From a virus (Duplodnaviria; Heunggongvirae; Uroviricota; Caudoviricetes), in the IMG/VR virus record IMGVR_UViG_2547132272_000003, positions 1-7,474 of that record: 7,474 bases of DNA. The stretch is one strand, 5' to 3'. Both the position numbers and the translations under genes were made by a program. Under the pieces are notes generated by a model. The model was not told the DNA's origin, ran no database searches, and saw nothing but the letters and a program-made list of their open reading frames with translations. Below, piece by piece: positions 1 to 7,474 of this stretch; the first letter of the stretch is position 1; every line of letters begins with the position of its first letter.

Positions 1-26
1 CTTACGCTACGTACTTCTCGGGGCGC

Positions 27-632
27 TTACATCGGCGTGGCGCTCACGGTCAGACCACCTGCCGTGGTGGATGCTGACAGGGTGATGTCATTCCCCCAGG
101 CACCTTTGGTCCGGGTGGTGACCGTCAGCTGAGAGGCTTCCGATTGGTATTCCCCCGTAACCAGAAGCGAAGGCGTCTGCGTCATTGCTTCCACCAGTGC
201 CGGAATGATTTTCGACGGTCCATCACCGGTTTCCACATCCACCGAAACCTGCTCACCGGCAACCCATACCGACAGTGTTCCGCTGCTGATTGCCGTACCG
301 TTGACGGTAACTGCGCCGGTTGCTGCCTTTCCTGCGCCACTGTCTGCAATACCGATAACATCCAGTTGCAGATAGCTGTTGGCATTAATGGCCGCGCGCG
401 CCATTGCAGCGGCCAGCGAACCGGCCCCGAAATACAAATCCGCTTCGTCTTCGGAATACACGGAAACGGCATTCAGGGGCGTGGCGGTGCCGCCTGACAG
501 CATCGGGCCAATCACCAGAACACGCTGTTCGTTACCCGGCAGCGTGTTAACGGCCAGCCGGGTATTAAACTCAAAATGCACACCGGGCTTACGGATGCCG
601 CCCGAAATGGTGTCAAACTGAATTTCACTCAT
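27..632 (-). CDS. Tail sheath protein (Mu gpL-like), N-terminal portion only; ORF stops after 201 codons
   Basis: ATG at 632-630 preceded on the minus strand by AGGTGG with a 6-nt spacer, and overlapping the stop of the upstream small ORF (ATGA-type overlap). The N-terminal sequence (…RKPGVHFEFN…RVLVIGPM…FGAGSLAAAMARAA…) resembles the N-domain of contractile-tail sheath proteins, and the position after gp36/gp37/gp38 homologs matches Mu L. In-frame TAA at 29-27. Mu-family sheaths are, from memory, roughly twice this length. Confidence 0.7.
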   Translation of the reverse strand: MSEIQFDTISGGIRKPGVHFEFNTRLAVNTLPGNEQRVLVIGPMLSGGTATPLNAVSVYSEDEADLYFGAGSLAAAMARAAINANSYLQLDVIGIADSGAGKAATGAVTVNGTAISSGTLSVWVAGEQVSVDVETGDGPSKIIPALVEAMTQTPSLLVTGEYQSEASQLTVTTRTKGAWGNDITLSASTTAGGLTVSATPM

Positions 633-867
633 CGGAATCCACCTGTTTCTCTCTCTTCGCCTTCGCTTTTACCTGCACGGCGTCCTGTTCAGTCGTCACG
701 GTGGTTTCAGGCTCATCCTTCACCAGAATCAGGTCACCGTCCTGAACGGCGCGCCGGTAATAAGCGGTGTTCTCAACGGTCACCGCTTCCGTGGTGATGT
801 ATTTCCGGGCGTTATCCTCCATCGGGAACTTCATCCCGGGAGCCGCCTTAACCTTCATTTTGTTCAT
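625..867 (-). CDS. Small conserved Mu-like prophage protein at the gp38 position (80 aa), function unknown
   Basis: ORF with ATG at 867 (second in-frame ATG at 858); overlaps the 3' end of the gp37-like gene by 20 nt and the sheath start by 8 nt. Sits between the K-like and L-like genes as in Mu. Lys/Glu-rich C-terminus. Family assignment is by synteny only. Confidence 0.55.
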   Translation of the reverse strand: MNKMKVKAAPGMKFPMEDNARKYITTEAVTVENTAYYRRAVQDGDLILVKDEPETTVTTEQDAVQVKAKAKREKQVDSDE

Positions 868-1429
868 GCTGTTGCTCTCTTAATTCATCCAGACCACAGA
901 TATCTGCGCCGTATTGCGTACCAATTCGCAGTAAATCCGGGTCAGGGTCTGACAGCCTGCCGTGGTAGCGGTTGAAGAGGCGATCCGCTTCTGCGCCACG
1001 CTCCGGCCATTTGCCGTTCTCCAGCGCGTGCTCCACCCAGCGGGTATCGAACTCACAGGCAAACACGGACATTGCCCGCTCTGCCACGCCGGTGTTAAAC
1101 AGCGTCCTGACCCGCCCGGGTTCGAAATAATCAATCTCCAGCCCCAAATCCTGACCGGTCAGCAGACGACGGACGGATTCAACCAGCTGGTTTGTCCCGA
1201 CCTCATCCCGGACGGTGCCTCCCTGTCTGGCGCTCTGTTCGCTGCGGGTGTTGTAATCACCCACCACAACCACAAAGCGTCCTGTGGCAATGTATTTCCG
1301 GCGTGACGTGGAATAGCGTTCGGTTTTCACGATGCCGCCGAACGTCACCCAGGCTGCCGGAAGGCTGCGAACAATCCGGCCCGGGTCTTCATCCAGTTCA
1401 CCGGCATAGGTGCGGACATCCTGCACCAT
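848..1429 (-). CDS. Mu gp37/K-like protein (DUF1834-type, head completion/neck region); true start probably upstream at a non-canonical codon near 1483
   Basis: 193-aa ORF from the first in-frame ATG (1429). The frame stays open upstream to a TGA at 1510-1508 and encodes a plausible N-terminal extension (ILITDIERALVERLRCGLGH), with GGGAGG at 1498-1493 and overlap with the gp36-like stop (TGA 1485-1483). No ATG, GTG or TTG occurs in that extension. Synteny directly downstream of the gp36-like gene. Confidence 0.75.
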   Translation of the reverse strand: MVQDVRTYAGELDEDPGRIVRSLPAAWVTFGGIVKTERYSTSRRKYIATGRFVVVVGDYNTRSEQSARQGGTVRDEVGTNQLVESVRRLLTGQDLGLEIDYFEPGRVRTLFNTGVAERAMSVFACEFDTRWVEHALENGKWPERGAEADRLFNRYHGRLSDPDPDLLRIGTQYGADICGLDELREQQHEQNEG

Positions 1430-1482
1430 ATGCCCCAGACCACAGCGCAGACGCTCAACCAGCGCCCGTTCAATGTCAGTAA

Positions 1483-1914
1483 TCAGAATGCACCTCCCCG
1501 CGTGGACTCACGCCCGAACTGACGGGAGCCGGAGCGGATACGCACCTGTGACGATGACTGGATCACGCTGCCGGACGTATCCCGCCCGAGGTTGATTTGT
1601 CCTGCCGCGACTTTCTCCAGAAAGCGGATGGCGTCCCGGTAGCGCATCTGAATTTCTTCTGAGCAGATACGGTAATCGGTCGCCAGGTGATAACGGGCGA
1701 TATCGCAGCAGTAACCCACCAGAATCCCCGGGCTGTCAGGCCACGGGGTCCGGTAACGCCCCACCAGATAGCCATCAATCTGGGCACTGGCGCGCGCAAG
1801 CGCGGAGGCCAGTTTTTCTTCGTCGATGAATCCCGTCATGTCTTCATCCGTCAGTGTGCGTGCCTCGCGTTCACTGAATGCCCTGATGAACTGTTCCGGC
1901 GTGGCGTAAGACAT
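1483..1914 (-). CDS. Mu gp36/J-like protein (DUF1320 / Phage_Mu_Gp36 family, head-tail joining)
   Basis: 143-aa ORF; ATG at 1914 preceded by AAGGAG with a 9-nt spacer; starts 3 nt after the stop of the upstream small coiled-coil gene. Size and position match Mu J/gp36. Confidence 0.8.
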   Translation of the reverse strand: MSYATPEQFIRAFSEREARTLTDEDMTGFIDEEKLASALARASAQIDGYLVGRYRTPWPDSPGILVGYCCDIARYHLATDYRICSEEIQMRYRDAIRFLEKVAAGQINLGRDTSGSVIQSSSQVRIRSGSRQFGRESTRGGAF

Positions 1915-1917
1915 GGG

Positions 1918-2259
1918 TTACTTCTCCTTTTTGTCCGCTTTTTGTGTTTTCTGTGCGGCGTTCAGCTGTGCGGTCAGTTCACTGACTTTCTGGCGTTCTT
2001 CTTCCAGCTGCGCTGTCAGTTCGCTGACTTTCTGACGCTCGGCATCCAGCTGTGCGGCCAGCTCATCACCCCGGGCCGCGTCGTTCTGGCCGGACGCTTT
2101 ATCGCGCTCCACCACAATCAGCATGGGGTCAGCCTTCAGCACCGCCAGCTGTTCCGGGGTGAACGCATCCGCAGGCCATGCCTTCGTGGTTGCGCTGTGT
2201 GCCACACCGCAGCGGCGAAAACCCTCACGGCGGGCGGTAATTTCAATCACCTTTTCCAT
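1918..2259 (-). CDS. Small Mu-like prophage protein at the gp35 position: N-terminal globular region plus C-terminal repeat-encoded coiled-coil and Lys-rich tail
   Basis: 113-aa ORF; ATG at 2259 preceded by GGAG with a 7-nt spacer, 3 nt after the T stop (TAA 2265-2263). The C-terminal third is encoded by a 42-bp tandem repeat giving ELxAQLxxERQKVS units. Placed between the major head and gp36-like genes as in Mu. Confidence 0.7.
   Translation of the reverse strand: MEKVIEITARREGFRRCGVAHSATTKAWPADAFTPEQLAVLKADPMLIVVERDKASGQNDAARGDELAAQLDAERQKVSELTAQLEEERQKVSELTAQLNAAQKTQKADKKEK
1963..2064. repeat. In-frame 42-bp direct tandem repeat (about 2.4 copies) inside the gp35-position gene
   Basis: Unit 1 at 1963-2004 (cagctgtgcggtcagttcactgactttctggcgttcttcttc), unit 2 at 2005-2046 (cagctgcgctgtcagttcgctgactttctgacgctcggcatc), partial third copy at 2047-2064 (cagctgtgcggccagctc). 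Copies differ at a few positions. Confidence 0.85.
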
Positions 2260-2262
2260 GCA

Positions 2263-3171
2263 TTACTCCGTCGTACCATCAGAACCAAATGCCATCTGCC
2301 AGAAGCCGTAACCGCCGTTACAGCGCGCTTCGGCACCAAACAGGAACTTCTTACGCTTGAACACGTTGTCGCTGTTGTAGTCCGTCTGCTCCACAAAAAC
2401 AGGCTTTTTACGTAGCTGATAAATCAGCGGTTTCACCGGTTTGGTGGTGTCAAACAGGAACCACGCAGAATCCGACGCCAGCTCCGGCATCACCAGCACT
2501 TCGGCGGTATTGCGGTACGGGTTCGGCGTGCCGTCCGGGAACTTCTCGGCGGTCATCAGGTAGTTCGCGTCATCCTCCAGCGCCGGTGGCACAACCAGCA
2601 GATTCGGGCGAATTTTGAGGGATGCGCCTTCGTCATCTTTCAGACTACGCATGGCCGTACGGGCGGCACCGTAGGAGGCTTTCGCCTCGGCAAGCGAGCC
2701 AACTTTGAGTTTTTTGGTGCCCCTGTTGGACACCGATTTACCGGCGACCAGGTGGTCGGTATCAAAGAACATCTGACCGTCGTAACATGGATTGATAAAA
2801 CCGTTACTGATAAGGGACGCCACAATATCTGCCGGTAGCTCTGCTGCCGACTGTCCGGCTCCTTTCGCCTGAAGGGCATAGCCCATAATCTGGTCGTCCT
2901 CGATGTCGTTACGATCGACTTCAACCGTGGCTTCCCAGTCCTTGTTACGGATGGTGTAGTTAAATGCCGCCAGTGATTTGACGACCTTGTCACCAATCCA
3001 CTCGCGCATTTTCGGGAAACGACTTAACCAGCTGTAGTCGTTTTCCTTGCCGTTTGATGGCACTTCCATTGCCACCTTCTGCCAGTCAGTTGGCGACTGG
3101 TCGAAGGCTTTCTGGAAGGTGGCCTTCAGATTGATAAAAATCTGTTTGACGTTTTTAACGTTGACTAACAC
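2263..3171 (-). CDS. Major head (capsid) subunit, Mu gpT-like
   Basis: Long ORF running to 3213 in the track. I place the start at GTG 3171-3169 because AAGGAG lies 6 nt upstream and this start no longer overlaps the upstream ORF (stop 3184-3182); the in-frame GTG at 3213 and ATG at 3207 lack a Shine-Dalgarno motif. The resulting length (about 302 aa) is close to my recollection of Mu T (about 305 aa). Position after the protease/scaffold gene. Confidence 0.88.
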   Translation of the reverse strand: MLVNVKNVKQIFINLKATFQKAFDQSPTDWQKVAMEVPSNGKENDYSWLSRFPKMREWIGDKVVKSLAAFNYTIRNKDWEATVEVDRNDIEDDQIMGYALQAKGAGQSAAELPADIVASLISNGFINPCYDGQMFFDTDHLVAGKSVSNRGTKKLKVGSLAEAKASYGAARTAMRSLKDDEGASLKIRPNLLVVPPALEDDANYLMTAEKFPDGTPNPYRNTAEVLVMPELASDSAWFLFDTTKPVKPLIYQLRKKPVFVEQTDYNSDNVFKRKKFLFGAEARCNGGYGFWQMAFGSDGTTE

Positions 3172-3181
3172 GTTTTGCTCC

Positions 3182-3577
3182 TTAACTGAAATGAACCCAG
3201 ACGCCATCGCCACAGATGCCGATCACTTTCCCGGCGACAGGACGGGCGCTGCTGTTGTCGGTTTTTGCCACGGTTACGCTGTCTTCCACGTAGCACAGCT
3301 TGCCGACCTGCGATTGTGTGACCGGGTCTGAGGTGCTGTTCACCATCAGAAAATCTTTGCCGCAACGCACCAGAACGGTGACATCGCCATCGCTGCCGGT
3401 GCTGTTATCCGCCCAGCCATCAGACACGCCCAGCGTAATCTGTGAGGCCGTGGCACTGGCCGGAACGGCATAACCGGATGCGTTAACGGCCACCATATGA
3501 CCGCCAAAAATTTCGGTCGCAGCGGCAACCGGCACCGGGTTCAGCTCGCCGTCACGGTAGGGGGTATTGCGATCCAT
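3182..3577 (-). CDS. Small structural-module protein between protease/scaffold and major head genes (131 aa); possibly a capsid decoration/cement-type (DUF2190-like) protein
   Basis: ATG at 3577 directly follows the I stop (TAA 3580-3578), with AGGAG 8 nt upstream. Gly/Val/Ser/Thr-rich sequence ending …GKVIGICGDGVWVHFS. The family call is tentative, from memory of small proteins found at this position in other capsid modules. Confidence 0.6.
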   Translation of the reverse strand: MDRNTPYRDGELNPVPVAAATEIFGGHMVAVNASGYAVPASATASQITLGVSDGWADNSTGSDGDVTVLVRCGKDFLMVNSTSDPVTQSQVGKLCYVEDSVTVAKTDNSSARPVAGKVIGICGDGVWVHFS

Positions 3578-4720
3578 TTACTCATCTCCTGCGTAATAGT
3601 CGTTTCCTGCATAACGGGCGATATCTTCTGGATCAGTGCCCATCATGGAACAAATGGCGATATCGACATCGACGTCATCGCCGGTTTTAATCTGCGCCGG
3701 GGCCGGTGACGGCGTTTTGGGTGGTTTGCCGCCGGTCTGTGTCTGACTGAGCGCAACAAGTTTCGGTGCGTTCTCCAGCCAGGACTTAAAGCCGTTGATA
3801 TCGCGACCGGCGTAATCTTTCGCCCAGTCTTCCTGGGCCGGAAGCAGTCGCCCGTCAGACAGTGCCGCCTGAATCAGTGCCCCGGCTTCGGCCTCACCGG
3901 ACTGTTGCGCCAGTGCGGCATAACGCCCCTGAAGTTCTTCAAAGGCAGCGAGGGAAATGTGTTTTGACGGGTCATAGGCATTGGCTGACAGGCTGGCGAT
4001 TTGCTCGTCTTTCTGATTCAGCAGGGCCAGCAGACCAACAGAAGCCGCTGCCGTTCCTTTGCCACCAGAGACAGCATCAATAATTTTTTGCAGCTCTGCG
4101 CATACTTCCTCTGCGGTTGAGGTTTCCGGCAGCGTCAGCAGCCAGCGTAACTGCGCGAGTAAATTTGCTAATTGTTCCGGGTTCACGGTTTTGGTCTCCG
4201 TTTCAGTTGACAGACTCGCCAGACGGCTGGCCGCAGCCAGCATGACCGCGTCCATACCGTCGAGCGCAGGGGTATTGGTCAGCGCAGCGTGTAACAGCTC
4301 CAGCACTTCGCCGCGCTTGTTGTAGGCAAAAACAGGGGAAATAAACTTGTACTCACCGGCGGCAATCATGGCCGCCGCGTTCTCCGTCCACTCCACACCG
4401 GTGGCATACAGGCCCGCGCCTTCTCGCCATTCCACCTGGCTGAACCAGCCCGCCGCCGGGGCGGGCTTGCCGTTGTTTACGGCGCGCAGCGTCTGATGTT
4501 CGTAATCAATGACAAAAGGCGTGGTACGGGCTGCCACCTGCGCGACAAGCTGCGCGGCCAGTTCAGCGGTCAGCACCCATTTACCGCTTTCGACTTCATC
4601 GGTATGTGGGCGACCATCCACCGCGCTGAACTCGCCCGCCGGAAACAGCTGGATTTCGCTGTGGGTTGCTTTAGTAATTTCGAGGCTTAATGCCGCAATG
4701 TTCAGTTTCATACGCGGCAT
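3578..4720 (-). CDS. Protease/scaffold protein, Mu gpI-like (scaffold Z expected as the C-terminal portion of the same frame)
   Basis: Long ORF; frame open up to GTG at 4765. I place the start at ATG 4720 (MPRMKLNIAALSLEI…); ATG 4711 and GTG 4765 are alternatives, and none has a convincing Shine-Dalgarno motif. Size (about 380 aa), the Ala/Leu-rich helical C-terminal half typical of a scaffold, and position between G and T match Mu I/Z. Confidence 0.82.
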   Translation of the reverse strand: MPRMKLNIAALSLEITKATHSEIQLFPAGEFSAVDGRPHTDEVESGKWVLTAELAAQLVAQVAARTTPFVIDYEHQTLRAVNNGKPAPAAGWFSQVEWREGAGLYATGVEWTENAAAMIAAGEYKFISPVFAYNKRGEVLELLHAALTNTPALDGMDAVMLAAASRLASLSTETETKTVNPEQLANLLAQLRWLLTLPETSTAEEVCAELQKIIDAVSGGKGTAAASVGLLALLNQKDEQIASLSANAYDPSKHISLAAFEELQGRYAALAQQSGEAEAGALIQAALSDGRLLPAQEDWAKDYAGRDINGFKSWLENAPKLVALSQTQTGGKPPKTPSPAPAQIKTGDDVDVDIAICSMMGTDPEDIARYAGNDYYAGDE

Positions 4721-4765
4721 GATGACGGAAGGGGAACACGGGGTACTGTGGAGGGTGTTCAGCAC

Positions 4766-4919
4766 CCTGCCATAACGCGAAAGGATAAAAGGGGAAATAA
4801 AACCGTTTTTAAAACCCTTTTAAAAACGATTCTGGCGGTATTTATGGGGTGCGGTGCTGTAATGCTCATCCGTGAGGCGTTTATGTCGTCAGAGTCGATT
4901 ACAGCGCGTTTGTGGTCAT
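4766..4919 (-). promoter_or_regulatory. AT-rich spacer between G and I; candidate late promoter region (Mu P_I position) containing a perfect inverted repeat
   Basis: Only notable non-coding gap in the window and markedly AT-richer than its surroundings. In Mu the C-activated late promoter P_I lies immediately upstream of gene I. Contains TTAT/ATAA and CCCC elements (minus strand: CCCCATAAATA … TTTCCCCTTTTATCC), but I cannot match them to the C-binding consensus from memory. Confidence 0.35.
4804..4828. repeat. Perfect inverted repeat: 11-bp arms (cgtttttaaaa / ttttaaaaacg) around a 3-nt loop
   Basis: Read directly: 4804-4814 cgtttttaaaa, 4815-4817 ccc, 4818-4828 ttttaaaaacg. Each arm contains the self-complementary octamer TTTTAAAA. 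On the minus strand it is followed by GTTTTATTT. Confidence 0.85.
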
Positions 4920-5471
4920 TCAGTCAATCACACGCGCAAAATAGCGGTTTGCGGTGTTCTCCAGCTCGTCGATGTCGTCCTGCACAAGCTGAAGGAAGGG
5001 GCGCGCGGGCATGTTGACCGTATACGCTCCGACCGTTGCGCTCTGTACAAAATTACTGTTGCGCTTTTTCACAAAGCGGGTGCTGACGCTGCCGTTTTTG
5101 TACTGTTTAAAATACAGGTTCTGCGTCCGTGCCTGATGGCGGATTTCGCCGCCTTCGTTGTGGATACGGGCGTAACGGACGTTTGTCCCGACCGTGGCCT
5201 CGTTATTGTTAACCGCAGAGCGGATACTGGCAGCCAGTCGCCCGGACTTCTGAAGGATTTGCCCGGGGCCGCGTCGCTTCGCATAAGCCGGACTCCAGCC
5301 CATCCATTTCGGGCGACCCTGTTGTTCAAAGTTAGTCTCAACCGCATCCAGCATGGAACCCGCAAGCGCCGTCATCAGGTCGCGCCGGTCCTTCACGGAA
5401 CGAATCAGTTTCCCCAGCGTGGTGTTATACGCGCTTAAATCAATCTTAATATCCAGTTTACCGCTGCTCAT
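4920..5471 (-). CDS. Virion morphogenesis protein, Mu gpG-like
   Basis: 183-aa ORF; ATG at 5471 overlaps the F stop (ATGA, TGA 5470-5468) with GGAGG 4 nt upstream. Position between F and I as in Mu. Mu G is shorter from memory, so an internal start cannot be excluded, but the RBS and overlap favour 5471. Confidence 0.7.
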   Translation of the reverse strand: MSSGKLDIKIDLSAYNTTLGKLIRSVKDRRDLMTALAGSMLDAVETNFEQQGRPKWMGWSPAYAKRRGPGQILQKSGRLAASIRSAVNNNEATVGTNVRYARIHNEGGEIRHQARTQNLYFKQYKNGSVSTRFVKKRNSNFVQSATVGAYTVNMPARPFLQLVQDDIDELENTANRYFARVID

Positions 5472-6634
5472 GATGCCTCCGGTGTGTCCTGCATAACCCA
5501 GTCTGTCAGCACGTCATCCTCAACCGTCACCACCGACCAGCGGTCGCCCGACTGTAACGCATACCGCCACGCGTTGCCGTCCTGCGTGACATGCTCCGCC
5601 CGTTCGATAGTCTGCTGCATCAGCACATAGTCGGCGGCGGTCGGGGGCGCGTCTGCTGCACTGAGGCGCTTCATAACGTCAGCCGTAAGGTTTACCGTCT
5701 GCCGTGCAGCGCCCGTGGCGGCGACCTGTTCTGGTGAACGGATGGCCAGCGGATATCGCTGGCGCGCATCCAGTTCGCTGACGTTCGCCAGTCCCCGGGC
5801 AAAATCCGGCCCGGTCAGGGTGCCGGTAACATACTGGCGGGCGCTGCGGTAATCGTATTTTTCCAGTTCCGGCTGCCATGCCACTTTGCCGGGGTTAAAA
5901 CCGAAGCCCGGGTCGGCGGTATACACGGAGCCGTCCGGCATCTTCAGCCCCATTGTTCTGATGGTCTGGCCCGGCTGACCATATTCCTGTTCAACCTCAA
6001 CCAGTCGCCCATCGCTGCTCTGCACCGTCAGGCCATATTTCTCCACATCAGACGCCGAACGCGCCCGGATACGGCAGCGGCATCCGTACCCGTCCGGCGC
6101 GTAGAAATACTCCCAGACCGGGTCATCCGCCCGGGCGGTAAAACCGTTCATGGCGGCGTGTTTCGGGCGGGTGTGAAGGTCCATCACCGCCACGCGCTCA
6201 AAATAAGGCCGGTCGGCCACGTTCGCCATCTGCTGCTGATAGCGTCCGGCGTTGTAGGACGACTGAATGTTGGTATCAAATATCGTGCGCAACCGGCGCG
6301 GCGTCAGCTGCCTGCCGTGCAGTTCGCCGGTGTCCTCGTCCACAATCAGCCGTTTACCCAGCCAGCCTTTTTTCTCCAGTAACGGCTCCAGTTGTGCAGC
6401 AAACTCCCGGAACGTCCCGCCGTCAGCCAGTGCCGCCGTCAGGCCGTCACGGATATCCTTCAGCACATCCAGTTTCAGCACACCCGCCACCGTGAACGCC
6501 CGGGCGTGTGCGATGTCCTTCACATCGTGCCAGCGGAAGCCGATAACGTATCCCTTGCTTTCGAAATACGTAATCGCTTCTTCCGGTTTCAGGGTGTACG
6601 CATACCCCAGGTCAACATCGTCAGCTGTCGGCAT
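5468..6634 (-). CDS. Head morphogenesis protein, Mu gpF-like (Phage_Mu_F family)
   Basis: 388-aa ORF; ATG at 6634 overlaps the portal 3' end by 14 nt; G-rich stretch (GGGGG) 7 nt upstream. Position directly downstream of the portal gene, as for Mu F/gp30. Confidence 0.8.
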   Translation of the reverse strand: MPTADDVDLGYAYTLKPEEAITYFESKGYVIGFRWHDVKDIAHARAFTVAGVLKLDVLKDIRDGLTAALADGGTFREFAAQLEPLLEKKGWLGKRLIVDEDTGELHGRQLTPRRLRTIFDTNIQSSYNAGRYQQQMANVADRPYFERVAVMDLHTRPKHAAMNGFTARADDPVWEYFYAPDGYGCRCRIRARSASDVEKYGLTVQSSDGRLVEVEQEYGQPGQTIRTMGLKMPDGSVYTADPGFGFNPGKVAWQPELEKYDYRSARQYVTGTLTGPDFARGLANVSELDARQRYPLAIRSPEQVAATGAARQTVNLTADVMKRLSAADAPPTAADYVLMQQTIERAEHVTQDGNAWRYALQSGDRWSVVTVEDDVLTDWVMQDTPEAS

Positions 6635-7474
6635 TCAGTCGCCCCCAGATATCCGCCACAAAGAATGCCTGTGTCAGCAACTGCCGCAGCGTGTCATCCG
6701 GCAGTTCCGGCCACGCTTCCGCCAGTACGTTCATGGCCTCGTCCGCATCCCGGCCTTCCTGTATGGCCTGCACCAGTGGGGCCACCAGTTCGTTCATCCC
6801 CTGCGCGATGGCCTCTGCCGGAAGCTCTGCCCGGTCGATGGCGCGCTGTGCCGGGTCGTCCTCCCCGTTGTCCTGCTGACTGAGTGCGACAACATTCAGC
6901 CGCTCACGCAGCTGGCTGAGGCCCGCCTGCACAGGGAGACGCTGTGCCACCGGCACCAGCACCTCTTCGCCGTCTTTCGGGGTGGGGATGCCGGTTTTTT
7001 TGCGCACCCACGACGCCGGAATATCCTTCATTCCCACACTGTTGAGCAACACGTTGACGGCTTCTGCCACACCCTTAATGTCGGCTTCCTGCTGCACATC
7101 AAACACCAGTCGCGGAAGACGGCGTGGCGGGACATCCTGCCAGCCGTTCAGGCTGGCCATCATCTGTATCAGGCTGCTGAACATGCCGGACAGCTGGCGA
7201 GCATCGGCGGCCAGAATGTCGTGCCGGACCTCGTTATGCACATTACCCAGCGCGTTGGTGGAGGTTTTACCGTCAGCCTGGCTGGTCAGCGTACTGCCCA
7301 GAATCACTTTTGAGGTGGTGCGCTCCGCCCATTCCACCATCGACATGAACGCCTCCGGCCCGCCGGACGCGGCTTCCTTGAACTCGATTTCATTACCCTG
7401 CGGCAGGGCTGCCACCGCTTCATGGCCCAGATTAACCAGGGCTTCGAGAATGTTGTCCCGGTCCTCGTCACTGG
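6621..7474 (-). CDS. Portal protein, Mu gp29-like (DUF935 family); 3' portion only, N-terminus beyond the window
   Basis: The frame is open from the window edge (7472) down to TGA at 6623-6621. The translated edge region reads …SDEDRDNILEALVNLGHEAVAALPQGNEIEF…, so the ORF-track start at 7415 (a GTG) is not the real start. Position upstream of the F-like gene. Confidence 0.8.
   Translation of the reverse strand, partial: SDEDRDNILEALVNLGHEAVAALPQGNEIEFKEAASGGPEAFMSMVEWAERTTSKVILGSTLTSQADGKTSTNALGNVHNEVRHDILAADARQLSGMFSSLIQMMASLNGWQDVPPRRLPRLVFDVQQEADIKGVAEAVNVLLNSVGMKDIPASWVRKKTGIPTPKDGEEVLVPVAQRLPVQAGLSQLRERLNVVALSQQDNGEDDPAQRAIDRAELPAEAIAQGMNELVAPLVQAIQEGRDADEAMNVLAEAWPELPDDTLRQLLTQAFFVADIWGRLNADS

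Follow-up and report, generated by a model that had tools for sequence, protein, structure and literature searches.

Evidence for a Noncanonical, Probably CUG, Start of the gp37 Gene in a Mu-Like Prophage Lineage of Escherichia coli

At which codon does translation of the gp37 gene begin in a Mu-like prophage lineage of Escherichia coli? The locus was analyzed in a 7,474-nucleotide (nt) stretch of viral DNA (positions 1 to 7,474 of IMG/VR record IMGVR_UViG_2547132272_000003, here called the window), the minus strand of which was identified by an open reading frame (ORF) listing and Pfam searches as the late (head-tail) operon of a Mu-like transposable E. coli prophage. In this operon, gp37 sits between the gene for the gp36 adaptor and the DUF2635 and sheath genes, an order that is the same in RefSeq prophages and in phage Mu. 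The mechanical ORF listing puts the gp37 start at 1429; upstream of this ATG (1429-1427), the frame is open for 26 sense codons (VHAGRCILITDIERALVERLRCGLGH), counted from 1507, without any ATG, GTG, or TTG. By a simple estimate, the chance that 26 codons are free of these three is (58/61)^26, or about 0.27; the start-less stretch is weak as a bare statistic and is meaningful only through homology. Our comparisons of homologous sequences indicate that the start of gp37 is noncanonical, most likely CUG rather than AUU, and that ATG 1429 is not the start.

An initial annotation of this DNA had drawn attention to the open 26-codon frame, to a GGGAGG at 1498-1493 (within GGGGAGGTG), and to an ATT that overlaps the TGA stop codon of gp36 at a spacing of 9 nt from the GGAGG; reading of the minus strand and translation of 1510-848 confirmed each of these elements. 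It had named CUG only generically, and the CTG at 1486-1484, which overlaps the stop codon and lies 6 nt from GGAGG, was not stressed. The CTGA at 1486-1483 is a 4-nt stop/start overlap of two codirected genes, and the homologous junction in relatives is TTGA.

The case for a start upstream of 1429 is built on the protein family. As the initial annotation had proposed, the gene is a homolog of Mu gp37 (DUF1834): the CTG-started protein matched PF08873 (Phage_Mu_Gp37) with an E value of 3.8e-48 and a score of 163.8 bits, against a Pfam cutoff of 25 bits, and its residues 2 to 150 aligned with positions 2 to 148 of the 149 in the profile. Against PHROG 490, the long form scored 210.6 bits from profile position 3, and the form beginning at Met20 scored 186.5 bits from position 21. 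The pattern M-I-T-x-I-E-x-A-L-V-x-R-L...G-L-G-x-M, or a one- or two-residue variant of it, opens essentially all full-length proteins among the 120 matches listed, and its M-I-T-x-I-E is colinear with the CTG-ATT-ACT-GAC-ATT-GAA of the window. In an alignment of 35 sequences, E6, R12, L13, G16, and G18 are invariant. Phage Mu gp37 itself (MLEETEAALLARVRELFG...) is colinear residue for residue from Met1, and the ATG of Mu stands at the position of the CTG. These comparisons of sequence show that the 19 codons preceding ATG 1429 do encode protein. The suggestion that the whole open stretch forms a plausible N terminus is thereby borne out as to conserved coding, by Pfam, homologs, PHROG, and model alike, but the protein takes up just 19 of the 26 codons, the first seven (VHAGRCI) preceding the N terminus of the family. 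With a conserved extension and a homologous start at the CTG, a noncanonical start is the best reading of the locus. A protein search of a phage GenBank collection (tblastn, threshold 1e-5) matched 7 records, and phage Mu was not among them.

The extension also has a defined place in the predicted structure. A sequence search of the PDB with the 212-amino-acid (aa) protein found no match at an E value of 1 or below, and a comparison of folds was therefore needed. In an AlphaFold2 model built on the homolog alignment, residues 2 to 20 form an alpha-helix (helix 1), and the block-mean predicted local distance difference test (pLDDT) score for residues 1 to 20 is 94, compared with a whole-protein mean of 76; the model is disordered from about residue 189 (pLDDT below 50). 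The best Foldseek matches were the solved phage Mu terminator structures 9khy (E value, 3.6e-7) and 9lj8, followed by the pyocin R2 collar, T5 p142, lambda gpU, and T4 gp15; the template modeling scores for gp37 were only 0.45 to 0.55 because the C-terminal 60 residues are poorly modeled. Judged by the fold of the model, gp37 is a tail terminator protein. Going by the homologous solved structures, gp37 would form a ring, probably hexameric, that caps the tail tube and sheath, and about six copies of gp37 per virion would thus be expected. PHROG 490 gives homologs of gp37 the label "portal protein," as do the RefSeq entries for phage Mu (NC_000929 Mup37), SuMu, and a Mannheimia phage. This label looks like a propagated misannotation, as the fold matches those of the Mu terminator and other tail terminators.

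The history of the start codon can be followed through the family. Among 61 species-level genomic loci, the start is ATG in 32, TTG in 19, and GTG in 10, and none is without a canonical start; 18 of the 19 TTG loci have the TTGA overlap. The branch to which the window belongs reads GGAGGTGC(A/C/G)TT-TTG-AT(T/C/A)-ACN and has TTG in Citrobacter, Trabulsiella, Intestinirhabdus, Buttiauxella, Xenorhabdus, Photorhabdus, Morganella, Providencia, Edwardsiella, and others, with TTG at the homologous codon and the same Shine-Dalgarno (SD) sequence at the same distance in loci L004 to L011, L129 to L133, L177, and L178. The nearest relatives outside the E. coli lineage are L129 (86% amino acid identity), C. 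braakii L177 (90%), and L178 (87%), whose junction, GGGGAGGTGC(A/G)TT-TTG-ATT, has TTG in a context otherwise like that of the window; the junction of the Citrobacter relatives is GGGGAGGTGCATT-TTG-ATT, with the TTGA stop/start overlap. These relatives at 86 to 90% identity differ from the window by one T/C at the start codon within an otherwise identical 30-nt context. CTG was found in every locus at 92% identity or higher, in all 60 E. coli-type loci (50 from IMG/VR scans, nine E. coli genome records, and the window; 25 distinct alleles), and in 10 of 10 metagenome matches from a scan that left the start codon free as NNN.

Since relatives at 86 to 90% identity have TTG in otherwise the same context, the change was one from TTG to CTG, and the ancestral start was TTG, not ATG, altered by a single T-to-C transition that became fixed in one E. 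coli lineage. This change is silent in gp36 (TTT to TTC, Phe). The idea that an ancestral ATG had mutated is not upheld by these relatives, and the motif that had been expected here, CTGATGACT, was not the ancestral junction of this locus: near relatives read TTTTGATT, and TGATG occurs in phage Mu and in other branches. Loss of 6 nt from an ancestor with TGATG-CTG-ATT, such as L014 (TTCTGATGCTGATTACG), would also yield TTCTGATTAC; this origin was considered and rejected because it is less parsimonious, identity to L014-type genes being only about 54%. L014, from a second Mu-like prophage of Trabulsiella odontotermitis, reads TTC-TGA-TG-CTG-ATT-ACG (M-L-I-T-D-I-E) at about 1490-1510, and loss of one copy of its CTGAT(G) direct repeat would recreate the TTCTGATTAC junction of the window.

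Variation within the CTG lineage, analyzed over the 25 distinct CTG alleles, bears on whether the gene and its extension are under selection. The mean pairwise synonymous divergence is about 0.08 to 0.09, the gp37 ORF is full length (212 to 217 aa) in 25 of 25 alleles, and the ratio of nonsynonymous to synonymous polymorphism (pN/pS) is 0.24 over codons 20 to 192 (pS, about 0.08). Codons 2 to 19 contain 7 polymorphic sites, distributed 1:0:6 over codon positions 1, 2, and 3; by our own estimate, the binomial probability of at least 6 of 7 sites falling at third positions is about 0.007. Four of the 7 sites are purely synonymous, there are no stops or indels, and amino acid changes are confined to position 4 (D/E) and position 19 (H/K/E), both of which vary family-wide. 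The pN/pS of the extension (codons 2 to 19) is 0.46, a value that is underpowered alone. The gene is under purifying selection, and the extension evolves as coding sequence, with a modest within-lineage signal. Neither of the two observations that would have spoken for a start at 1429 was made: homologs do not start at the residue matching Met 1429, and the variation across 1430-1500 is not of a noncoding kind. The alleles of 212, 215, and 217 aa differ near the acidic C terminus (about 848-900 in the window; L125 to L128 and L171 to L175).

Translation could instead begin at AUG 1429, yielding a 193-aa product without helix 1 that is either still adequate or the product of a crippled gene. 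This is the first canonical in-frame start, it is the one annotated in about half of the RefSeq records, and it has a weak GGGG 3 nt upstream. However, the SD is poor, the position of Met20 lies inside the protein in all relatives, as a conserved hydrophobic residue rather than the start, and a start here would delete a confidently modeled helix with five invariant residues, while codons 2 to 19 hold third-position variation over the 25 alleles in a coding-type manner; a crippled gene is also hard to reconcile with a lineage that is mobile and under purifying selection. We consider a start at AUG 1429, which the initial annotation had left as one option, very unlikely; the coding sequence is likely to begin at 1486 or 1483 rather than at 1429.

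The lineage has moved between sites. CTG prophages were found inserted inside scpC in strain TUM1881, inside eutC in strain E2348/69, beside the cbeA/cbtA-yeeW island in strain AZ146, and beside fadR in strain M8, and these different chromosomal sites show that the lineage transposed or infected after acquiring the CTG, an observation that counts against the tail gene being dead. At the right-end junctions of the prophages (L179, L180, L182, and L183), host genes are cut short, as is expected of a Mu-like transposable phage. Of 5426 complete E. coli genomes, 55 contain the late-operon block, at 94 to 99.9% identity; among the 58 locations detected in E. coli genomes, 2 lie on plasmids.

It is against this background that a further alternative has to be weighed, namely, that gp37 has lost its start codon and is now an untranslated pseudogene in a decaying, defective prophage lineage. 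The homologous position does lack a canonical start, many E. coli prophages are defective, one copy (L171) is truncated by IS3 upstream of gp37, and one IMG/VR copy (L085) has a premature stop. All 25 distinct alleles nevertheless retain the full-length ORF with the low pN/pS over codons 20 to 192 given above, the CTG is kept in every copy over a pS divergence of about 0.08, and the varied insertion sites interrupt host genes as those of an active transposable phage do, all of which makes a pseudogene highly improbable. L171 (E. coli C5, NZ_CP010122.1) is a decayed prophage copy in which a frameshifted IS3-family transposase stands directly upstream of gp37, in place of gp36 and everything before it; the CTG-ATT-ACT junction is still present.

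We propose that the gp37 coding sequence probably begins at CTG 1486, with CUG as the main initiating codon, and that its 212-aa product would be (f)Met-Ile-Thr-Asp-Ile-Glu-Arg.... In the branch to which the window belongs, the norm is a strong SD (GGAGGTG) in the end of gp36, followed at 6 nt by a weak TTG that shares its TG with the gp36 stop codon (TTGA). After the T-to-C change, the initiator tRNA would still read the CUG at 1486-1484, helped in three ways: the SD is at near-optimal spacing, the same 6 nt as for the TTG in relatives; ribosomes fresh from termination at the overlapping UGA would stay on the mRNA (termination-reinitiation coupling); and the demand for the protein would be small, at some six copies per virion. 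Output would be lower than in the TTG relatives. We infer the preference for CUG over AUU, the contribution of coupling, and the reduced output. A low yield is plausible for a protein probably needed in so few copies. The high share of TTG among the family loci (19 of 61), compared with 3 to 4% of E. coli genes (bioRxiv 10.1101/063800), suggests that low output of gp37 is selected. Reinitiation in E. coli is aided by an SD and is still checked by initiation factor 3 (IF3) (PMC2268962).

Several observations weigh against initiation at CUG. In E. coli reporters, UUG initiates at 10 to 100% of AUG, whereas CUG, like AUU, AUC, and AUA, is a poor initiator at 1 to 2% of AUG (bioRxiv 10.1101/063800), and IF3 discriminates against noncanonical codons in reinitiation too (PMC2268962). 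The AUU 3 nt downstream would be about as good a near-cognate codon as CUG. RNA folding of 1545-1440 was no better than that of shuffled sequences (z = -1.0) and gave no structure suggesting obligatory coupling; with no stable RNA structure, coupling by the opening of a structure is not invoked here. Literature searches gave no mapping of the N terminus or initiation site of gp37, only general background on CUG/CTG starts. The selection signal of the extension is based on only 7 polymorphic sites, its synonymous excess falls short of significance (about 8 changes, 4 of them synonymous; P about 0.17 by our own estimate), and part of the polymorphism could stem from recombination. Finally, mobility shows that the lineage works and says nothing on which codon is used.

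The AUU at 1483-1481 therefore deserves separate consideration as a start of the kind found in infC and pcnB, which would yield a 211-aa product, (f)Met-Thr-Asp-Ile-Glu..., that lacks the first residue of the family. The AUU equals CUG in E. coli reporters, and only infC and pcnB, both of which use AUU, are confirmed noncanonical starts in E. coli (bioRxiv 10.1101/063800); the codon lies 9 nt from GGAGG, a workable SD spacing, and it abuts the stop codon, so that terminating ribosomes would be equally near. However, every relative has its homologous start one codon farther upstream, Ile2 is conserved in the mature N terminus, and it is the CUG that has the 6-nt SD spacing of the TTG in relatives. 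ATT, ATC, and ATA occur at codon 2 equally in TTG and ATG relatives, which argues against a lineage-specific adaptation of this codon. Initiation mainly at AUU thus appears unlikely. Where the initial annotation had offered AUU or CUG, a noncanonical start remains the best reading, with homology supporting CUG as the candidate, but ATT 1483 is codon 2 (the Ile2 of M-I-T) and not the homologous start. A single residue separates the CUG and AUU products, which may both be made.

A start codon would be unnecessary if gp37 were made as a gp36-gp37 fusion by programmed -1 frameshifting or stop codon bypass. The gp37 frame is -1 relative to gp36 and stays open over 7 codons ahead of the gp36 stop, which is also preceded by an internal SD, an arrangement that resembles recoding sites. 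There is, however, no X XXY YYZ slippery heptamer within 1507-1485 and no stimulatory RNA structure, and a +1 slip at TTC TGA meets a stop after two codons. Relatives have ordinary TTG, ATG, or GTG starts with varied overlaps, so that a fusion is not conserved, and the solved Mu terminator is a separate chain of 174 to 176 residues, which fits Mup37 alone (182 aa). Such a fusion is barely credible, and initiation at CUG remains the reading that we prefer.

A CTG start of gp37 is already implicit in databases, through the NCBI pipeline, albeit inconsistently. RefSeq starts the gp37 coding sequence at the CTG in WP_156835605.1, WP_071782311.1, WP_077788439.1, WP_129541842.1, and WP_071791946.1 and at Met20, with the same junction sequence, in WP_000249531.1, WP_032300897.1, and WP_250394520.1. 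The long form (CTG start, 212 to 217 aa) is named "DUF1834 family protein," and the short form (Met20, 193 to 198 aa) is mostly named "phage protein Gp37"; both product names are in use for one strain, E2348/69 (assemblies NC_011601.1 and NZ_CP059840.2). The annotation deserves to be corrected, in that the short form strips a conserved helix from the predicted tail terminator and standard ORF callers always yield the short form.

With respect to biology, a whole branch of Mu-like phages uses a weak TTG in a TTGA overlap for what would be a low-copy tail protein, and one successful E. coli lineage appears to tolerate a further weakening to CTG. This makes gp37, which is carried by the laboratory strain E2348/69, a convenient natural substrate for studying near-cognate initiation in a termination-reinitiation context; the finding is modest and involves no new mechanism. 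More speculatively, and in a reading that we hold to be less likely than not, a structural gene of a mobile E. coli phage lineage might be stably CUG initiated, with the CUGA overlap and the strong SD letting posttermination ribosomes bypass start codon stringency. If true, gp37 would be the first gene of E. coli or its phages with verified CUG initiation and a test case for reinitiating ribosomes being less selective than those that initiate de novo, and the supply of terminator might be tuned by the level of IF3.

The features of the junction and of the operon around it are collected in Table 1. NCBIfam has no model for gp36 or gp37, and a DNA search of the phage GenBank collection gave a sole match, a weak one to a Klebsiella phage. 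Two neighboring genes showed features of their own. The gp35 gene (HI1506 related) contains, at 1956-2065 on the minus strand, a 42-nt (14-codon) tandem repeat in 2.6 copies that are 75% matching and that encode a reiterated ...RQKVSELTAQL... coiled-coil-like segment; gp35 has 110, 113, or 124 aa in relatives, and the copy number of the repeat may be variable. The DUF2635 ORF from ATG 867 encodes 80 aa and shares 20 nt with the end of gp37, whereas the RefSeq homolog starts at the Met that matches window position 834 (69 aa), past the gp37 stop.

Table 1. Features of the late operon and of the gp36-gp37 junction in the window
Feature	Position	Strand	Remarks
Portal-like gene	7415-6621	-	
gpF-like gene	6634-5468	-	
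gpG-like gene	5471-4920	-	
Protease/scaffold gene	4765-3578	-	
Small ORF	3577-3182	-	
Major head protein gene	3213-2263	-	
gp35/FluMu_N gene	2259-1918	-	
gp36-like gene, head-tail adaptor, 143 aa, ends ...GCA TTC TGA	1483..1914	-	PF07030 (Phage_Mu_Gp36), E value 4.5e-33; PHROG 195 head-tail adaptor; RefSeq "gp436 family protein"
In-frame TGA closing the gp37 frame upstream	1508..1510	-	No start possible beyond it
SD sequence GGGGAGGTG, inside the 3' end of gp36	1491..1499	-	GGAGG core 1497-1493, 6 nt from CTG 1486 and 9 nt from ATT 1483
CTG, proposed gp37 initiation codon	1484..1486	-	CTGA overlap (1486-1483) with the gp36 stop; position homologous to TTG/ATG/GTG of relatives
gp36 stop codon TGA	1483..1485	-	Shares 2 nt with CTG and 1 nt with ATT
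ATT, codon 2 (conserved Ile2), alternative near-cognate start	1481..1483	-	Ile at position 2 in nearly all homologs
gp37 codons 2 to 19 (ITDIERALVERLRCGLGH), N-terminal helix 1 of the model	1430..1483	-	Left out by the short annotation
ATG, Met20, first canonical in-frame start	1427..1429	-	Used in the short RefSeq form ("phage protein Gp37," 193 aa)
gp37, proposed full coding sequence, 212 codons plus stop, predicted tail terminator	848..1486	-	PF08873 (163.8 bits); Foldseek
DUF2635 gene	867-625	-	
Tail sheath gene, beginning only	632 onwards	-	

Comparison with known systems places the locus among familiar elements. Phage Mu gp37 (Mup37, PF08873/DUF1834) stands in the same gene order (T, gp35, gp36, gp37, gp38 [DUF2635], and sheath), belongs to the same Pfam family, is colinear with the protein studied here from residue 1, and is matched in fold through 9khy and 9lj8, and in Mu, as in the window, the gp36 stop overlaps the gp37 start. 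However, the Mu start is an ATG in a TGATG overlap, whereas the lineage of the window has CTG in CTGA, and the two proteins share only 15 to 18% identity in the structural alignment. Closer to the window are the TTG-started Mu-like relatives, which have the same GGAGGTG, the same 6 nt, an NTG overlapping the TGA, and then ATT, ATC, or ATA followed by ACN, encoding M-I-T-x-I-E; they differ in the first base of the start codon, T instead of the C of the window, a change from a weak canonical to a near-cognate codon that leaves the gp36 protein unchanged. The AUU starts of infC and pcnB are comparable in that conserved N-terminal coding sequence has no AUG, GUG, or UUG at its head and an SD lies ahead of it, with low output and discrimination by IF3 to be expected. 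Unlike these, the proposed start codon in the window is a CUG that overlaps an upstream stop codon, and no autoregulatory logic like that of infC is evident. The overlap itself resembles the 4-nt overlaps (ATGA, GTGA, and TTGA) described for coupled genes (PMC6728339, PMC12548453, and PMC2268962), in that codirected genes of one assembly are joined with an SD in the upstream gene; the overlap in the window differs in being CTGA, with a restart codon that is noncanonical.

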